A stretch of 28,826 nucleotides of DNA, taken from positions 1 to 28,826 of the forward strand of contig WGAK01000275.1 of NCBI GenBank assembly GCA_015494815.1, read 5' to 3'. Shown here one piece after another: positions 1 through 7,119 of this stretch (its first letter is position 1; each line of letters begins with the position of its first letter). This DNA is from Anaerolineales bacterium (GTDB lineage Bacteria > Chloroflexota > Anaerolineae > Anaerolineales > DRMV01). Below the pieces are notes generated by a model. That model was not told the origin of the DNA. It was given only the letters and a program-made list of their open reading frames with translations, and ran no database searches. Position numbers and translations under genes: made by a program.

Positions 1-462
1 GAGCCCGCGGACCGCCTGGATGCGTTGCACGACCAATCCCTGGCCGCAGTGGATCGGCAATTCGCGACCTGTCTGGGGCTGTATGTGCTGCGGGAACAAG
101 GCTTGACCCCGCGCGAGATGGTCTTTCAGCCTTCCTGGGTGCAGGTCATTCGGGCCGTCGCCCGGGGGAATGTGCGTTTTGGCCTGCTGTATCAGGATTT
201 CTACGCCGGGCTCAGCGCCTTAAGCCGAGAGCAATTCCGCGTCCTGCACGAGACCCACACCCGCTACGCGACGCACATGCTGCTGCTGCATCCTGAGCGG
301 ACGGCGTGGCGTGAGCCCCTGCGCGCCGTGCTCACCGCGATGCCCGAGGACCCCGAGGGCGCCGCGCTGCTGCGCACGTTGCGCCTGGGGCGCTGGGTGC
401 CCGCGGATGACCTGGGCGCCATTGACCCTATCGTGCAGGTGCCGGTGCCCGGCCGCGTCTGA
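1..462 (+). CDS. 5'-truncated PhnD/phosphonate-binding-like (type 2 periplasmic binding fold) protein
   Basis: Frame is open from base 1 (EPADRLDALHDQ...) to TGA at 460-462. The segments 'SWVQVIRAVARGNVRFGLLY' and 'THMLLLHP...LRAVLTAMPEDPEGAALLRTLRLGRWVP' resemble the C-terminal half of PhnD/SsuA-type binding proteins. Family recognised by eye only. Confidence 0.55.
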   Translation, partial: EPADRLDALHDQSLAAVDRQFATCLGLYVLREQGLTPREMVFQPSWVQVIRAVARGNVRFGLLYQDFYAGLSALSREQFRVLHETHTRYATHMLLLHPERTAWREPLRAVLTAMPEDPEGAALLRTLRLGRWVPADDLGAIDPIVQVPVPGRV

Positions 463-465
463 CCT

Positions 466-1329
466 TCACGCGCCCCAGGCGATGAGCAGCATGGTCAGCA
501 GCATGTAAAGCGACGCGGACTTGAAGAGCAGGAAGTTGCGCTGGGGGGTGGGGCGCAGCGCGTTGGTGAAGGCCAGCAGCGCCAACGCGACCGACAGCAC
601 CACCAGCACGCTCAGCGCGCCGGATGTCAGCCCGATGAGCCCGGCCGCGGCGATGATGGTGCCCGCAGCCAGCACCGCGGCCAGCGCGATGACCGCGTAG
701 GCCACGCGCGAGCCGTAGACGCCGGGCACGGTGGGCACACCGGCTTTGCGGTAGTCGTCGGCATAGCGCAGGGCAAAGGTCACGATGTGGGTGGGAATCC
801 AGAACAGCACGGCCAGGGCCAGCAGCACGCCGATGAGGTCCACTTGCTCCACGGCCAGCGCGCGGCCGGCCAGCACGGGCATGCCGCCCGACAGCCCGCC
901 CCACACGATGGACCACGCGGTGCGGCGTTTGAGCCACAGGGTGTACACCACCACATCCAGGAACCAGCCCGCGAAGACCACCAGCCCATAGAGCGGCGCC
1001 AGGGCCACGGCCAGGCCCACACCCAGCACGGTGAGCAGCAATCCCAGTCGAAGTGCCTCGCGTGGCTGGACCTTGCCTGCGGGCAGCGGCCGCCAGCAGG
1101 TGCGGGCCATACGCGCGTCAATGTCCCGGTCGTACCACATGTTGAGCACCGTGCTGCCCGCGATGGCCAGCCACAGGCTGAGCACCAGGCCCACGGTTTG
1201 GCCCCACGGCCCGCGCGTGCCCGGATGCGCGCTGTAATAGCCGGCCACGCCCGTGGCCAGCAACAGCGCGGTCTGCAAACTCTTGGTCATTTGCCCGTAC
1301 AGGCGCAGGCGAATCCAAAGGTTCCTCAT
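466..1329 (-). CDS. ctaB: Protoheme IX farnesyltransferase (heme O synthase), UbiA family
   Basis: Motifs NMWYDRDIDARMARTCWRPLPAG, YTLWLKRRT..GG..G..P.LAG and FWIPTH...DDYRKAGVP; about 9 hydrophobic segments; RBS AAGGAG upstream. Confidence 0.9.
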   Translation of the reverse strand: MRNLWIRLRLYGQMTKSLQTALLLATGVAGYYSAHPGTRGPWGQTVGLVLSLWLAIAGSTVLNMWYDRDIDARMARTCWRPLPAGKVQPREALRLGLLLTVLGVGLAVALAPLYGLVVFAGWFLDVVVYTLWLKRRTAWSIVWGGLSGGMPVLAGRALAVEQVDLIGVLLALAVLFWIPTHIVTFALRYADDYRKAGVPTVPGVYGSRVAYAVIALAAVLAAGTIIAAAGLIGLTSGALSVLVVLSVALALLAFTNALRPTPQRNFLLFKSASLYMLLTMLLIAWGA

Positions 1330-1360
1330 CGCGCTTCTCCTTCACCGCCGCGCGCGGTCA

Positions 1361-1391
1361 GCGCCGGGGCCGGGCTGCCCGGCCCCGGCGC
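1361..1391. other. Perfect 14-bp GC inverted repeat (intercistronic hairpin) between the FGE-domain gene and ctaB
   Basis: GCGCCGGGGCCGGG-ctg-CCCGGCCCCGGCGC read directly. There is no U-tract, so it is probably an mRNA stability or processing element rather than an intrinsic terminator. Confidence 0.75.
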
Positions 1392-1402
1392 GAATGGAGG
1401 CT

Positions 1403-2320
1403 TCAGGGTGCTTCGCGAACGCAGCGCGCGCCCACCGTGGGCCCGGCGAAATCGGGCGGCGCGAAGTTGCGCCAGGTCGCGCGGGCGTCAATTTCGTAGT
1501 CGGTGAAACTGCCGCCTTTCAGGATGCGCTGGTGGGTTTCTTCGATGTCGTCGGCCACCCATTCCCACACATTGCCGGCCATGTCATACACGCCATACGG
1601 GCTGGCCGCGTCTTCGGTCTGAAAGCCCAGGTAAGTGCCGCCGTTGTAGAAACCCACGGGCGTGGTTTCGCCCAGGCCGCCCCAATACGCTTCGAAGGGG
1701 TCGCGGCTCTTGTAGTAATTGGCGTGCGCCCGGGTGATTTCCCAGCCCCAGGGGTAGGGGCGGCCGTCGGTGCCTCGGGCGGCCTTTTCCCATTCGGCCT
1801 CGAAGGGCAAACGCCCGCCCACCGCGCGGCAGTAGGCCCACGCGCCGAACCAGGTCACATAGGTGGCCGGGTGGTTCTCGAAACCGGCCCGCACGGTGAA
1901 CCGGCCGTCGGTGTAGACCACCTTGGCCCCCACCGCGTCGCGCGGATAGGCCAGATACGCGCCCGGCCCGATTTCTTCTTCGTGTTTGCCGCCCTGGAAG
2001 GGCTCGCCGGGATACTGCACCCAGACGCCGGTGTCGTCCAGGGTCAGGGTGCCGTCGGCCAGACCCTGGTTGAGAAACGCGGCCCATTGCGCATTGGTCA
2101 CGGGGGTGACCATGATTTCGTAGGCCTGCTCCAGCACCACGCGCTCGTTGTGCAGGCCGAACAAGAAGGCCCCGGCCGGAATGCGCACCCACGCGTCGGG
2201 GTCAACGCCGGTGTCCACTGTGGGGACGGAAGTGGGGGGCTGCAGATTGGCGCGGCAGGCCGCGGTCCACACGGCCAGGCCGACCAGCAGCAGCCCGACG
2301 AGGAACCGCTGCGGCTTCAT
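1403..2320 (-). CDS. FGE-sulfatase (SUMF1/NirV-like) domain lipoprotein, 305 aa
   Basis: Start at ATG 2320 overlaps the upstream stop (ATGA). Signal peptide MKPQRFLVGLLLVGLAVWTAAC with lipobox. FGE-domain motifs: WVRIPAGAFLFG, TPVTNAQW, PATYVTWFGAWAYC, GRLPFEAEWEKAARG, YPWG, YGVYDMAGNVWEW, KGGSF, GARC. Confidence 0.82.
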   Translation of the reverse strand: MKPQRFLVGLLLVGLAVWTAACRANLQPPTSVPTVDTGVDPDAWVRIPAGAFLFGLHNERVVLEQAYEIMVTPVTNAQWAAFLNQGLADGTLTLDDTGVWVQYPGEPFQGGKHEEEIGPGAYLAYPRDAVGAKVVYTDGRFTVRAGFENHPATYVTWFGAWAYCRAVGGRLPFEAEWEKAARGTDGRPYPWGWEITRAHANYYKSRDPFEAYWGGLGETTPVGFYNGGTYLGFQTEDAASPYGVYDMAGNVWEWVADDIEETHQRILKGGSFTDYEIDARATWRNFAPPDFAGPTVGARCVREAP

Positions 2321-3813
2321 GGCGTGTCCTCCTCGTACAGGGGCGGGAAGGCCGGTTGTTGCCATTCCGCGTACCAACGCCCTTGCGGCTTGAACAGGTC
2401 CACCAACCGCCAAATCAGGAACGCGGCCAGGGCGACCAGGAACAGCGACAGCGCGATGTCCATGACGATGAGGGTGCGGGCGACCAAAGGCTGTTCCAGG
2501 ATTTCGGGCACGAACACCCGCTTGAGCACCAGCACATTGGCGGCCAAGGTCGCGGTCATGGCGCCCAAGATGACAATCCAGCCCAGCCATTGGCGGGCCT
2601 TCCCCTGCACGCCGGCCAGGTGGAGGTAGTACAGCAGCAAGATGGACGCGATGATGAAGGCCAGGATGTGCCAGTGCCCCACCAGGCCGATTTTCTCCTC
2701 ACGCAGCAGCCAGCGCCGGAACATGTCCAGTTTGATGGCCATGTACACGCCCGGCGCGGTGACCACGATGTTCATGAACAGCATCAACCAGGTCGCACCC
2801 CAGGGCAAGGGGTCGTGCAGCATGGCCTTGAGTTTGGCGCCCAACCCGGCCAGGCGCGGCTCGCGGCCCTGGCGGGCCAGCCCGACCTGGATTTGCCGTC
2901 GCCATACATAGATGGCCAGGAACACCGAGGCAATCATGAGGAAGCCTGCGCCCACGTTGATGACCTTGTGCGCGATGTCGCGGAAAGGCACCACCATCCA
3001 CGCGCCCACGCTGATGATGACCGTGCCGATGATGTTCAGGGGCATGGCCCATTTTTGCGGCCAGCCTTTGAAGTCCACCCAGCGGCTGACGATGAACACC
3101 GCGGCCACCGCGATGTCCACCAGCATGATGTGCAGGTGGCCGACGATGGCCAGTTCCAGCGGGGTGTGGTAGGGGATGCGGATGATGTCTTCGGACAGGA
3201 AGACCTCGAAGCCGTGGCCGTAGAACGAGCCGGGCACCGCGCCGTACACGGCCGAAATCAGCGTGGCCACGGCCATGATGAACACGGCCAACCGTTCACC
3301 ATCCACCCCGCCTTTGAGCCGCCAGTAGGGCGTGTCGGCCGGTAGACGAAAGGCCTTGTCCCAGGGCCACAGGGCCGCGGCCAACACCAGTCCTCCGGCA
3401 AAGATGAGGGATTGCCCGAAGAGGAACAGGCCGTGGAACACCCAGTTGTGGCCCCAATACGCGAAGGCCAGACCGAAAATCATGGCCGACAGATAGCCCA
3501 CGGTGATGAGGATGTGAATCACCAGGCGCAAATTTTCCCGCATGCGATACAGCCCGGTGAGCATGTAGACTTCCACGGCAATGACGGCCATCGCGAACGC
3601 GTGGTACAGGAAAATCAGCCGCCCTTCCCGTTCCGCGGGGTCGAGGTCCATGCCCCACAGACGAATCCAGAAGTCCCGCACGCCCCACTCGGCCATGGGC
3701 CCTGAGAGCATGCCCATGAACGCGGCGGTCAAGGCGATGAGGGCCACGGTGCCCAGCACCAGGCCCCGGGAGGAACCGAAGAGATAGCGCAAACGAGCCG
3801 ATACGCCCTTCAT
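2317..3813 (-). CDS. 12-TM His-rich integral membrane protein (498 aa); heme-copper oxidase/NOR subunit I-like His arrangement; function unknown
   Basis: ATG 3813 with GGAGG RBS. Twelve hydrophobic segments in three 4-helix repeats. His motifs LYHAFAM (H71), GHLHIM (H226/H228), IAHKV (H282), GHWHIL (H380/H382). The CDS is confident; the fold assignment is inference. Confidence 0.8.
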   Translation of the reverse strand: MKGVSARLRYLFGSSRGLVLGTVALIALTAAFMGMLSGPMAEWGVRDFWIRLWGMDLDPAEREGRLIFLYHAFAMAVIAVEVYMLTGLYRMRENLRLVIHILITVGYLSAMIFGLAFAYWGHNWVFHGLFLFGQSLIFAGGLVLAAALWPWDKAFRLPADTPYWRLKGGVDGERLAVFIMAVATLISAVYGAVPGSFYGHGFEVFLSEDIIRIPYHTPLELAIVGHLHIMLVDIAVAAVFIVSRWVDFKGWPQKWAMPLNIIGTVIISVGAWMVVPFRDIAHKVINVGAGFLMIASVFLAIYVWRRQIQVGLARQGREPRLAGLGAKLKAMLHDPLPWGATWLMLFMNIVVTAPGVYMAIKLDMFRRWLLREEKIGLVGHWHILAFIIASILLLYYLHLAGVQGKARQWLGWIVILGAMTATLAANVLVLKRVFVPEILEQPLVARTLIVMDIALSLFLVALAAFLIWRLVDLFKPQGRWYAEWQQPAFPPLYEEDTP

Positions 3814-3834
3814 GGATGACCTCCGCAGGGGAGC

Positions 3835-3869
3835 GGGGCCCGGCTCGGCATGCACGCGGGCCGGGCCCC
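3835..3869. other. GC-rich intercistronic hairpin between the 7-TM and 12-TM genes
   Basis: GGGGCCCGGC (3835-3844) ... GCCGGGCCCC (3860-3869), a 10-bp perfect stem extendable with a G-U pair. Confidence 0.6.
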
Positions 3870-3877
3870 CGAGGTTC

Positions 3878-4504
3878 TCATTTGGCCATCAGGTGCTTGA
3901 CGAAGCCCCAGGCGTAGGCCAGGGTCATCAGCAGCAGCAAGGGGGCCAGGATGGTCAGCACCACGGGCTGGCTGAAGAACAGGAACTGTTTGCCGGCCTT
4001 GAGGAAGGACAGCGCGATGCCGCCCAGGCCGATGAGCACGCCGCCCACGGCCACCAGGGCGAACCCGGCCGGCGCGGCGCTCTGGCTCACGGCCAGCAGC
4101 GGCAGCACGATGATGGTCAGACCGGCGATGCCGTGCACGAAGGGCATGACGAATTTGCCGTAGGTCGCGCCCATGCCGCCCAGGTACACCGCGGCTACGA
4201 GCAGAAAGCCCACCACCGCATAGAGCAGATAGGCTTTGGCCCACTGGGGCTTCAGGTCATACACCAGCCCCGTGGCCAGCCCCAAGGGGATGAGGGTGGT
4301 CACCACCACCACCCACGGCGACCCCAGCAGGTCGTAGCCGAAGGCGATGAGCAACACGCCGGCGACCAGCAGCACGAGGAAGGACAGCATGTAGGCCAGG
4401 TAGGCCGTGCGGGGGGTCTTGTTGTAGGCCTGATAGAGGCGGGCCAGGGCATACAGGGCCACCAGCCCGGTCAGCAAGAGAAGAACGCGGTCCAGCCAGT
4501 TCAT
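3878..4504 (-). CDS. Hypothetical 7-TM membrane protein (208 aa) with a single intramembrane His
   Basis: Strong RBS AAGGAGGT. Seven hydrophobic segments; PFVHGIAG in TM5. Directly downstream of nirS. Confidence 0.8.
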   Translation of the reverse strand: MNWLDRVLLLLTGLVALYALARLYQAYNKTPRTAYLAYMLSFLVLLVAGVLLIAFGYDLLGSPWVVVVTTLIPLGLATGLVYDLKPQWAKAYLLYAVVGFLLVAAVYLGGMGATYGKFVMPFVHGIAGLTIIVLPLLAVSQSAAPAGFALVAVGGVLIGLGGIALSFLKAGKQFLFFSQPVVLTILAPLLLLMTLAYAWGFVKHLMAK

Positions 4505-4547
4505 CTTACACCTCCTTCAGTGGGACAAGCGCGACCGGCGAGGGACG

Positions 4548-4581
4548 AAAAACGAACCAGGGCCCCGTGCGGGGCCCTGGT
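4548..4581 (-). terminator. Intrinsic terminator/attenuator-like hairpin immediately after nirS
   Basis: Minus strand: ACCAGGGCCCC-GCAC-GGGGCCCTGGT (11-bp perfect stem, 4556-4581) followed by TCGTTTTT. Confidence 0.7.
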
Positions 4582-4588
4582 CGGCATT

Positions 4589-6361
4589 TTAGTAGATGTC
4601 GTTCATGGTGTTGTAGACATTGAACTTGCCGGTGGCGGTGGGGAGATTGGGGATGCGGGCGATTTCTTCGAGGGTCGTGGCGTCGTAGACCACCACCTCG
4701 CCCTGCTGCCCTTCGGGGGCGTCAATCTTGCCCCACACGCTCACCCACACCTCGGTGCCGTCCTGGTTGAACTCGAAGTGCACGGCCCGGCCGTAGTCCG
4801 CGACCTCCCAGCACTTCTCGACTTCCAGGGTCTCTTTGTTGATGGCGCACACGCTGCGTTGCTGAGTCTCGTCGTTGCTCAGCGGCGAATCCACGAAGAG
4901 GTAGGGGCTGTTGGGGTGGGTCTTGATGAACAGGTTGCCGGCAGCGGGCAGTTCGACCCGGGCGACCTCCTTCCAGGCATAGTCGGGGTGGCCTTCGGGG
5001 TCAACGCCGATGATGGAGATGAAGTTATCGCCCAGGTGCCCCGTGGCCCACACCGGGCCATACTCCGGATGCACCCAGTTGGCGCCCCGGCCGGGGTGCG
5101 GCTTGGTGCCCACGGGCACGATGGCTTCGATTTTCTCTTCCTCGGTGTTGACCACCACAATCTTGTTACGCATGTTGGCCGCCACCAGGAAGTACGGGCT
5201 CAGGCCCACGCGCTCGGTGCCGTCCCACTCCATGGCCCAACCGCCGTCGTGCAAGAAGCGCTCGGCTTCGAGCATGCGGATGGTGGGGTTGTTGGGGTCG
5301 CTGTAGTCCACCAGCCAGACCTGGCCGGTTTCCTTCACATTGACCACCCACTGCGGCCGGGCATGCGAGGCCACGATGCTGGCCACCCGCGGCTCGGGGT
5401 GATATTCCTCGGTGTCATAGGTGTAACTGCGGGTGCTGACGACCTTGAAGGGCTCCAGGGTCTGCCCGTCGAGGATGACGAAGTGCGGCGGCCAGTAGCA
5501 GCCCACGATGGCGTACTTGTCCTCGTAGCCCGCGTATTTGCTGGTGTCCACCGAGCGGGCGTCGTAGCACACCTTGACCTTGGCCACCAGGTCGGGCGTT
5601 TCCATCCACAAGTCAATCAGGCCCACTTTGCCGTCCCGGCCGATGGTGTACACATAGCGGCCGCTCTTGGACATGCGCACGATGTGGGTGGCGTAGCCGC
5701 TCTCGACGATGTTGACCACCTCTTTGGTGTCGCCGTCAATGATGGCCACTTTGCCCGCGTCCCGCAGGATGACCACGAAGAAGTTCTGCCAGTTGCGGTC
5801 ATGCTGGGGCTCGGTGGGCCGTTCCTCGGGCGGCACCAGCACTTCCCAGGACTCCTTCATCTGTTCCAGGGACATCTCCGGCGGCATGGGCGGGTCCATC
5901 TGGATGTACTTGGCCATGAGTTCGGTCTCGGCCTCGGTCAACACACCCTGCTTGCCCCAGTCGGGCATGCCGCGCGAAGTGCCGTTGAAGATGATGGAGG
6001 CCAGGTTGGTGGTGCCCAGGCGGCGGGTGTTCTCCGGCTCCAGGCTGGGGCCGGTGGCGCCCTTGCGCAGCACGCCGTGGCAGCCCGCGCAGCGGTCGAA
6101 GTAGATTTGCTTGGCCTTGGCGAACTCTTCGTCGCTCAGCGTGATTTCGTCCGTAGCCGCGGCCTCGGTGGCCTCGGGCGTGGCTTCGGCTTCGGGCGTG
6201 GCCTCCACCGTCACCACCACCGTCTTGACGACTTCCACCGTCTTGACCACTTCGCGTACCTCGGGCGTGGCCGCGGCCTGCCCGCCGCAGGCCGTGAGCA
6301 CCGCGCCCGCCAGCGCAGCAACCAACAACACGAGCATCCAACGCAACGATGATTTGTGCAT
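4589..6361 (-). CDS. nirS: Cytochrome cd1 nitrite reductase, lipoprotein-anchored (590 aa)
   Basis: Heme c site RCAGCHGVLRKGATG, Met ligand GMPDWG, d1 proximal His GYATHIVRMSKSGRY, distal His FLHDGGW and KPHPGRGAN, ARSV, and C-terminal TGKFNVYNT..DIY. Start placed at ATG 6361 (RBS AAGGAG), giving signal peptide MHKSSLRWMLVLLVAALAGAVLTAC. Confidence 0.95.
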   Translation of the reverse strand: MHKSSLRWMLVLLVAALAGAVLTACGGQAAATPEVREVVKTVEVVKTVVVTVEATPEAEATPEATEAAATDEITLSDEEFAKAKQIYFDRCAGCHGVLRKGATGPSLEPENTRRLGTTNLASIIFNGTSRGMPDWGKQGVLTEAETELMAKYIQMDPPMPPEMSLEQMKESWEVLVPPEERPTEPQHDRNWQNFFVVILRDAGKVAIIDGDTKEVVNIVESGYATHIVRMSKSGRYVYTIGRDGKVGLIDLWMETPDLVAKVKVCYDARSVDTSKYAGYEDKYAIVGCYWPPHFVILDGQTLEPFKVVSTRSYTYDTEEYHPEPRVASIVASHARPQWVVNVKETGQVWLVDYSDPNNPTIRMLEAERFLHDGGWAMEWDGTERVGLSPYFLVAANMRNKIVVVNTEEEKIEAIVPVGTKPHPGRGANWVHPEYGPVWATGHLGDNFISIIGVDPEGHPDYAWKEVARVELPAAGNLFIKTHPNSPYLFVDSPLSNDETQQRSVCAINKETLEVEKCWEVADYGRAVHFEFNQDGTEVWVSVWGKIDAPEGQQGEVVVYDATTLEEIARIPNLPTATGKFNVYNTMNDIY

Positions 6362-6405
6362 GGTCTCGTCTCCTTGCACTGTGGAATGAGAAAGTAGGTG
6401 CTTTC

Positions 6406-6448
6406 AGTGTAACGCGAGGTTGTGAGGCGTTCTGTGACGCGTGTCACA
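6406..6448 (-). promoter_or_regulatory. Class II CRP-family-activated promoter of the nirS operon
   Basis: Perfect palindromic box TGTGA-CGCGTG-TCACA at 6433-6448 and minus-strand -10 TACACT at 6406-6411. If +1 is about 6399, the box centre (6440.5) lies at -41.5. Confidence 0.8.
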
Positions 6449-6454
6449 TAAAAA

Positions 6455-6470
6455 AGTGACGGATGTCATG
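6455..6470. promoter_or_regulatory. Second, imperfect CRP-type box 22 bp upstream of the first
   Basis: AGTGA-CGGATG-TCATG keeps the GTGA-N6-TCA core and overlaps the regulator stop codon. Confidence 0.4.
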
Positions 6471-7119
6471 CTTCGGCCGTGGCCGTGGCGTGCAGACGCT
6501 GCCGCAACCCGTCCGGGTCCAACAGCACCACCCGCCCGCGGCCCGAACGCACCAGGCCGGCGCGGCGCAGCGCGGCCAATTCGCGGCTCACGGTCTCGCG
6601 GCTGGTGCCAATCCATTGCGCCAGTTCCTGGTGGGTGGCGCGCACCACCCATTGCCCCTGGTCGTCCTGGCGAGCGTGTTCCAGCAGGGCCCAAATCAGC
6701 CGTTCCCGCGCGTCGTGGAACATGGAGGTCTGCATACGGGTCACGATGTTGCGGACATGGCGAAAGCATTTGTGGTGCAGCCAGCCCAACAATTCGGGGT
6801 GCTGATTGCACATGGTCTGGAACTCGTCCTTGGGCGCCCAGAGCAAAGTCGTGGGCGTGATGGCGCGGGCAGTGCCCACTTGCGGCCCCTGGTCCAGCAC
6901 CGCCAGAGGGCAGAAGCAGTCGCCTTTGCCGTGACGGCACAGCAGGGTTTGGTGACCGTCGAAGTCCACCCGCTCCAGGTGCACCCGGCCGTCCAGCACC
7001 AGGTAGATGTGCTCCGCGGGGTCACCCTGGTGGAAAATCACCTCGCCGGCCGGCACATGCCGGATGCGAAAGATGGCTTCCATCTGTTCTCGTAGCGTGG
7101 GAGGCAGATTGTGCAGCAT
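6466..7119 (-). CDS. Crp/Fnr family transcriptional regulator (Dnr-like role, CRP-type recognition helix)
   Basis: cNMP-binding-like beta-roll (GEVIFHQGDPAEHIYLVLDGRV) plus HTH THQELAQWIGTSRETVSREL; RBS AGGAG. Confidence 0.92.
   Translation of the reverse strand: MLHNLPPTLREQMEAIFRIRHVPAGEVIFHQGDPAEHIYLVLDGRVHLERVDFDGHQTLLCRHGKGDCFCPLAVLDQGPQVGTARAITPTTLLWAPKDEFQTMCNQHPELLGWLHHKCFRHVRNIVTRMQTSMFHDARERLIWALLEHARQDDQGQWVVRATHQELAQWIGTSRETVSRELAALRRAGLVRSGRGRVVLLDPDGLRQRLHATATAEA

Follow-up and report, generated by a model that had tools for sequence, protein, structure and literature searches.

The window analyzed here, a 28,826-nucleotide stretch that makes up all of contig C275 of an Anaerolineales metagenome-assembled genome (MAG; 2.04 Mb in 298 contigs, 89.8% complete), carries nirS, the gene for a cytochrome cd1-type nitrite reductase, next to four genes that recur together in related bacteria, mostly without nirS attached. 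We give an even chance to the explanation that these four genes form a module encoding a new heme-O-dependent membrane enzyme with the fold of the heme-copper oxidoreductases (HCOs), which reduces or removes nitric oxide (NO) under the control of a CRP-type regulator, and that nirS was recruited to the module secondarily. The original prediction for this DNA listed five genes on the minus strand in the order nirS, a gene for a protein with seven transmembrane helices (7TM), a gene for a His-rich protein with 12 such helices (12TM), a 'NirV-like' gene and the heme O synthase gene ctaB, an arrangement borne out by gene calls and profile matches. It took them for a nirS operon and proposed that the accessory genes encode either (a) an NO-reducing or electron-delivery complex using a prenylated heme or (b) a different way of making the catalytic heme of NirS or of inserting it. 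DNA of the contig was also matched in hydrothermal vent metagenomes.

The central component of the putative enzyme is the 12TM protein (2317-3813, minus strand), for which Pfam and NCBIfam scans return no family. Its AlphaFold model, built on an alignment of 28 diverse family members (pLDDT 90, pTM 0.91), has as its best solved matches exclusively HCO subunits I, namely those of the cbb3 (CcoN), aa3, ba3, cNOR (NorB) and qNOR enzymes (Foldseek probability 1.0, TM-score ~0.53). In the VIA comparison, Z ranged from 19 to 21.5 over 377-421 residues for CcoN, aa3, ba3 and NorB, which cover oxidases of the C, A and B families as well as cNOR, and from 14 to 15 for qNOR, and the next unrelated helical matches reached Z values of at most 13.6 over only ~130 residues. 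The nearest AlphaFold DB cluster (TM-score 0.71-0.75, 21% identity) bears the automatic name 'Cytochrome oxidase subunit I profile domain-containing protein'. Judged by its model, the 12TM protein is a predicted sequence-orphan member or analogue of the HCO superfamily, with the subunit I fold. Five of its histidines (H127, H226, H228, H282 and H380) are invariant in the family alignment down to 25% identity, and H71, H382, E208, Y70, Y119 and W381 almost reach this level; the conserved set includes seven His and one Glu, with the motifs H226xH228 and H380-W-H382. In the model, H71 lies in transmembrane helix (TM) 2, H127 in TM4, the first HxH motif in TM6, H282 at the start of TM8 and the second HxH motif in TM10, and all of the conserved His are predicted to lie in the outer half of the membrane, the outer face being set by the loops that would contact the NirV-like protein. 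By helix index, the TM2 His and the TM10 HxH reproduce the heme-ligand pattern of HCOs. No conserved Tyr is present in TM6 or TM7 of the alignment, as in nitric oxide reductases (NORs). E208 is nearly invariant but sits in an outer loop that contacts the NirV-like protein in the predicted complex.

A shape search of the Atlas also matched clusters of NnrS (333-395 residues aligned; TM-score 0.56-0.62 by the model, 0.60-0.74 by the match). In alphaproteobacteria, both NnrS and NirV are members of the NnrR regulon. Such regulons are treated in PMC1274295 and PMC6710368. These shape matches, and the control by a CRP-family regulator described below, would suit a 12TM protein that is an NnrS-like heme or metal membrane protein of the NO stress response, guarding against nitrosative damage without respiratory NO reduction, its neighbor being the counterpart of NirV in proteobacterial NnrR regulons. 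We consider this rather unlikely: at E ≤ 1, none of the 28 family members is recognized by the Pfam NnrS profile (PF05940), an hhalign comparison with an NnrS-like protein from Chloroflexota returns nothing, the match to solved HCO subunits I is stronger and spans all 12 helices, and no requirement of NnrS for heme O is known.

Close relatives of the 12TM protein number more than 2,600, none of them named and most carrying the label Chloroflexota or Anaerolineae; at 50% identity, the family comes down to only 246 cluster representatives. We surveyed 301 sampled genomes of the class Anaerolineae, 52 of which encode a 12TM homolog; 31 form a core group with ~49% identity or more. The relatives are not independent, and the co-occurrence figures given here are counts, not tests. 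Of the 33 loci examined at 49% identity or above, 31 keep the order 12TM-FGE-ctaB, FGE denoting the gene for the NirV-like protein with the fold of the formylglycine-generating enzyme (FGE); the exceptions have no match to FGE (L059) or to ctaB (L072). L072 (G190:C18:50800-52232), where the 12TM homolog is broken into two frames and no ctaB comes after FGE, may be a copy in decay. Three long contigs with 52-54% identical homologs each carry, in this order, the CRP-family regulator, 12TM, FGE, a UbiA-family gene and a gene for a protein of 227-236 aa, with no nirS.

The FGE-like protein (1403-2320, minus strand; Pfam FGE-sulfatase PF03781, 140 bits) is likely the extracytoplasmic subunit of the 12TM protein, as suggested by modeling of the pair. 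In one relative, the two proteins are naturally fused (P0126, 785 aa), and the predicted complex scores an ipSAE of 0.73 versus 0.00 for the best of three controls; 58 of 80 solved complexes and 2 of 110 mismatched pairs attain this mark, a rough calibration since our own alignments were used. In the window, the stop codon of 12TM and the start codon of FGE overlap as ATGA. Lipoprotein signals were found in both NirS (LTAC; 6283-6361) and the FGE-like protein (TAAC; 2255-2320); to go by these signals, both proteins would be anchored on the outer side of the cytoplasmic membrane. Besides the N-terminal lipobox Cys, only C143 and C279 are conserved in the FGE-like alignment, which has no CxxxxC upstream of the terminal GxRC, the motif that we take to hold the catalytic Cys pair of true FGEs. 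Because this pair is absent, the FGE-like protein is probably a structural or substrate-channelling cap and not a copper enzyme.

The last gene of the module, ctaB (466-1329, minus strand), encodes a predicted heme O synthase, its TIGR01473 score of 215.2 bits exceeding the equivalog cut-off of 210.3 bits by a narrow margin. This is a second, dedicated copy, since the genome also has a ctaA-ctaB pair on contig C243; the module CtaB shares 36% identity with the C243 protein versus 52-65% with module CtaB proteins of other genera. Canonical COX1 is missing from 7 of the 31 core-module genomes, and in four of the five COX1-less genomes that were rechecked (G102, G072, G178 and G293), among them one that is 96% complete and has two copies of the module, the module provides the only heme O synthase gene or genes. 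For the heme O of these four genomes, the 12TM protein is the sole evident client. In a distant clade of 12TM homologs (36-42% identity), neither FGE nor ctaB is found next to the gene, except for ctaB in L075. The two upstream neighbors that were scanned in that clade (L078:7403-9043 and L083:9516-11144) encode canonical but divergent COX1 proteins of ~220 bits, and most genomes of the clade have a single COX1 match of similar strength (E ~1e-63 to 1e-66).

That two distant 12TM genes (L078 and L083) directly follow canonical COX1 genes, that ctaB is normally paired with ctaA and that the 12TM protein is rich in His could all be taken to mean that the module handles or modifies heme O, as an analogue of heme A synthase or as an insertion or trafficking factor serving other enzymes. 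We find this distinctly improbable: the core module occurs in genomes that offer no canonical HCO as client, the fold of the 12TM protein is that of a catalytic subunit and not that of CtaA, and the window genome has its separate ctaA-ctaB pair.

The 7TM gene (3878-4504, minus strand), which encodes a Chloroflexota-centered orphan family with no Pfam or NCBIfam match, often precedes 12TM in the 33 loci, and a 7TM paralog often lies behind ctaB. An alignment of upstream and downstream paralogs has one invariant His (H124, in VHGxAG) and a GGxLIGLGG motif. The model (pLDDT 93.6) has seven helices, and its only matches are 7TM bundles of a generic kind, rhodopsins and G protein-coupled receptors among them, so that its fold is uninformative as to function. 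Of the 33 loci, 22 (L046:2769-3575, L011:13345-14028 and 20 others) also encode, behind ctaB or behind the second 7TM gene, a multi-pass membrane protein of 225-250 aa that belongs to no Pfam family and of which no copy was detected in the window genome. Comparison led us to reject a 227-aa protein encoded downstream of ctaB in relatives as a 7TM homolog; this protein likewise has no Pfam family and no copy in the window genome was detected.

With respect to nirS, the synteny of these loci shows that the accessory gene set is conserved among relatives, mostly with no nirS attached. In the lineage of the window, nirS sits between the promoter box and the module, whereas in G143 (L046) it lies behind the last module gene on the same strand, and in the closed genome G119 it is 10 kb away. 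Joined to the module in only two lineages and at opposite ends, nirS is an extra specific to particular lineages, and the description of the cluster as a nirS operon gives way to that of four accessory genes forming an autonomous module, found in many families of the class and having its own CRP-box promoter. The original interpretation is thus upheld in part: option (a) agrees with the evidence, since the HCO/NOR fold of the 12TM protein, its FGE partner and the dedicated ctaB fit an NO-reducing complex with a prenylated heme, but the framing as a nirS operon does not hold. The 9-kb stretch between module and nirS in G119 (within locus L071, G119:C1:1479900-1499800) holds three tandem genes for CRP-family regulators, several perfect TGTGA-N6-TCACA boxes before minus-strand genes and a gene for a Fer4_5 membrane protein similar to NapH/NosH; the stretch has the look of a CRP-box regulon island.

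In the window, the predicted control region lies upstream of nirS, which is encoded at 4589-6361 (minus strand); the reading frame (4589-6379) is open from a GTG at 6379, the likely start is the ATG at 6361, and the protein was called as 590 aa in L007. The CRP-type box anticipated in the original prediction, TGTGACGCGTGTCACA, is present as a perfect TGTGA-N6-TCACA at 6433-6448, centered ~80 nt upstream of the nirS ATG. It is the only perfect copy in the window, yet 27 of 100 shuffles give at least one. Eight loci of relatives with no nirS at this position have a perfect box at a distance of 74-118 nt upstream of the module's first gene, and four more loci have a near-perfect box or one lying farther from the module; as the box is kept before the module in loci without nirS, it is part of the promoter of the module itself. 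The adjacent gene (6466-7119, minus strand) encodes a CRP/FNR-family regulator with both a cNMP-binding (Pfam cNMP_binding) and a helix-turn-helix domain (HTH_Crp_2) and with RETVSR as its recognition helix, and many relatives have a gene for a homologous regulator upstream of the module. The regulator of the window lacks the Cys cluster that FNR has at its N-terminus and is therefore CRP-like and not a classical FNR.

The module is closed on the left, as predicted, by a convergent gene for a phosphonate-binding protein (1-462, plus strand; profile match and gene call), which ends 3 nt from the ctaB stop codon, and the inferred gene coupling was confirmed as well, with RBS-like GGAG motifs before the genes other than FGE. 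The claim that one promoter drives all five genes is weakened and not secure, because an intrinsic-terminator-like hairpin of 12 bp, nine of them GC, followed by a U-run, lies directly after nirS (4555-4582, minus strand); the 101-nt nirS/7TM spacer has a minimum free energy of -39.4 kcal/mol (z -2.4). Each of the 7TM/12TM (3814-3877) and FGE/ctaB (1330-1402) spacers has a long GC-rich hairpin with no U-run, which may be an intercistronic stabilizer or a repeat element.

A link to nitrogen oxides emerges from the survey, in which NirS is encoded by 11 of the 31 core-module genomes versus 16 of the 270 others, and NirS or NirK by 15 of 31 versus 34 of 270. Canonical HCO genes are also found in this context. 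Five other Anaerolineae nirS loci (L121, L123, L127, L130 and L131) have a canonical COX1 gene (~229 bits) in the equivalent position, subsets of them with genes for a short COX2-like protein, a copper P-type ATPase or a cytochrome b/4Fe-4S protein; these genes probably represent a NOR-type cluster of the canonical kind beside nirS. The window genome, and likewise its congeners, has a divergent HCO gene on another contig (L085; G000:C7:7607-8965; ~309 bits to COX1 and only 98 bits to CtaD), whose product could belong to the B-family-related NORs that have been reported from Chloroflexi (PMC8756737).

A rival reading has O2 as the substrate. A heme-O oxidase that scavenges O2 for the mostly anaerobic Anaerolineae under O2-responsive CRP/FNR control, with the adjacency of nirS reflecting shared low-oxygen regulation, would account for the HCO fold of the 12TM protein, the dedicated heme O synthase, the presence of the module in seven genomes with no other HCO and the half of the module genomes that have neither NirS nor NirK. 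We judge it unlikely in view of the remodelled metal site with no conserved TM6/TM7 Tyr for a His-Tyr cross-link, the enrichment of NirS/NirK genomes among those with the module, and the regulator devoid of the FNR Cys cluster.

The proposal of an NO-removing HCO-fold enzyme has to be weighed against several observations. Neither profile searches nor hhalign tie the 12TM protein to any HCO family or to NnrS at the sequence level: the COX1 profile PF00115 matches neither the window protein at E ≤ 0.01 nor any of the 28 family members at E ≤ 1, a PDB profile search with the family yields nothing, and hhalign comparisons with a COX1 alignment of relatives and with a single COX1 are equally negative. 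Of the six canonical His ligands of HCOs (TM2 His, TM6 His, TM7 HH and TM10 HxH), H71, H226, H380 and H382 would correspond to four, an equivalence deduced from helix index and depth in the model only; the TM7 HH motif is absent from the family, so that the metal site must be remodelled, and H127, H228 and H282 are additional. The FGE-like subunit offers no obvious redox cofactor site for the entry of electrons. In 16 of the 31 module genomes, neither NirS nor NirK is encoded, so that the module is not bound to NO made by the cell itself. Finally, the second, divergent canonical HCO on contig C7 means that the window genome possibly has a NOR already.

The product of nirS itself is a lipoprotein-anchored cytochrome cd1-type nitrite reductase with a Cytochrom_D1 domain (416 bits) and a cytochrome c domain. 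It matches the solved cd1 enzymes of Pseudomonas and Paracoccus with 596 bits at ~60% identity and keeps their cofactor residues, that is, the heme c CxxCH and Met ligand, the d1 His (GYATHIVRMS) and the distal His (FLHDGGW and PHPGRGAN), as had been expected from the apparently intact d1 pocket. The absence of heme d1 genes beside nirS was likewise confirmed. None were found in the window, and a 32.5-kb copy of the contig that extends to its left holds only housekeeping genes there. A profile search of the 89.8%-complete MAG revealed no complete d1 cluster elsewhere: its single Cytochrom_D1 match is NirS, leaving no second such protein (NirF/NirN), no siroheme decarboxylase domain (AsnC_trans_reg2; NirDLGH) was matched, and no SUMT (NirE) scored above the cut-off. 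A NirJ-like radical SAM protein on contig C114 was rejected as NirJ, since it belongs to the TIGR04053 family, is related to heme b synthases and is encoded beside hemA; by family and neighborhood, it is assigned to ordinary heme synthesis.

The pattern extends to the class, in which 27 of the 301 sampled genomes encode a full or nearly full-length Cytochrom_D1 protein. None of these 27 has NirF/NirN as a second Cytochrom_D1 protein, only one has a siroheme decarboxylase and six have a SUMT; in five near-complete NirS genomes, one of them closed, neither SUMT nor NirJ was detected above the cut-off. The missing d1 pathway is thus class-wide and not an assembly gap peculiar to this MAG. PMC8756737 describes Chloroflexi nirS neighborhoods without other denitrification genes, which is its only remark on the subject, and our literature search found no paper discussing the absence of the d1 pathway in NirS-bearing Anaerolineae.

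The absence of the pathway is real in the class, yet it is not explained by the module. Option (b), in which the accessory genes would make or insert the catalytic heme for NirS by another route, could draw on this class-wide absence and on the physical joining of nirS to the module in two lineages. It is highly improbable because NirS and the module occur apart in many genomes: a 12TM homolog is missing from 13 of the 27 NirS genomes, and NirS from 20 of the 31 module genomes. Apart from CtaB, moreover, no module protein resembles a tetrapyrrole-modifying enzyme, and farnesylation is foreign to heme d1 chemistry. Nor do the NirS neighborhoods share any other conserved gene; among 20 Anaerolineae loci screened for candidates of an unknown d1 route, no gene beyond nirS recurs in more than five. 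Taken jointly, a new orphan HCO-fold NOR with an FGE cap and its own ctaB, and a NirS working without known d1 biosynthesis, whether through salvage, an unknown pathway or a different cofactor, form a tentative picture that we place somewhat below an even chance.

If the module does encode an NO-removing enzyme, its workings can be outlined from the model and the conserved residues. The autonomous unit comprises the CRP-family regulator and CRP box, followed by 7TM, 12TM, the FGE-like lipoprotein gene and ctaB, and nirS has been inserted just behind the promoter box. For cofactor binding, substrate and electron route, we infer an arrangement in which a low-spin heme would be held between the TM2 His and one TM10 His of the 12TM protein, a high-spin heme O would sit on the other TM10 His, and a non-heme metal could be bound by the TM6 HxH and the TM8 His, a conserved Glu possibly taking part. 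On its outer face, the 12TM protein would be capped by the FGE-fold lipoprotein, which would replace the cupredoxin or cytochrome c subunit usual in such enzymes; heme O would come from the dedicated CtaB, and the 7TM protein, with its single invariant His, may aid electron delivery. Such an enzyme, controlled by the adjacent CRP-type regulator, would most likely reduce or otherwise remove NO, including that produced by NirS or NirK.

Should the module reduce NO, gene-based surveys of denitrification and of N2O sources would miss it, since it is invisible to the Pfam and NCBIfam models. About one in ten of the sampled genomes carries it, in a class that is abundant in wastewater, sediments and vents. 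The HCO superfamily would also gain a subunit composition not seen before, with an FGE-fold cap and 7TM partners and with no subunit II. Moreover, for the NirS hosts of the class that have no SUMT, siroheme decarboxylase, NirJ, NirF or NirN, how and whether heme d1 is acquired becomes a testable question, which bears on the use of nirS as a functional marker.

Compared with known systems, the 12TM protein is collinear with HCO subunit I (CcoN, 3mk7; NorB, 3o0r; ba3, 1ehk; aa3, 3dtu; qNOR, 3ayf) over ~380-420 residues and, by helix index and depth in the model, has the TM2 His, a TM6 His and the TM10 HxH at the outer-leaflet level of the HCO cofactors. It differs in being only ~10% identical to these proteins, with no Pfam COX1 match or profile-profile signal, and in having an HxH in TM6 and His at the starts of TM4 and TM8 but no HH in TM7. 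Furthermore, the module has no gene for a cupredoxin or cytochrome c subunit II, and the predicted partner is instead the FGE-fold lipoprotein. The lack of a conserved cross-link Tyr is shared with cNOR and qNOR. [quoted passage not shown] These families, however, have a recognizable COX1 related to the B family and CuA-type subunit II homologs, neither of which is found in the 12TM family.

The module resembles the NnrS/NirV set of NnrR regulons in combining a His-rich 12TM protein with an FGE-sulfatase-fold protein, a CRP/FNR-family regulator and a nitrite/NO context, and the predicted shapes of NnrS and the 12TM protein overlap partly (TM-score ~0.6-0.7). Unlike NnrS, the 12TM protein, which has no sequence match to it, is translationally coupled to the FGE-like protein, fused with it in one case and accompanied by ctaB; NirV and the FGE-like protein are likened by the shared Pfam domain only. 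With respect to the nirS-nirMCFDLGHJEN operons, the window NirS is closely related to the enzymes of Pseudomonas and Paracoccus and retains every cofactor ligand, but, unlike in those operons, no NirF/N, NirDLGH, NirJ or NirE was found in its genome, a feature that it shares with most NirS genomes of the class.

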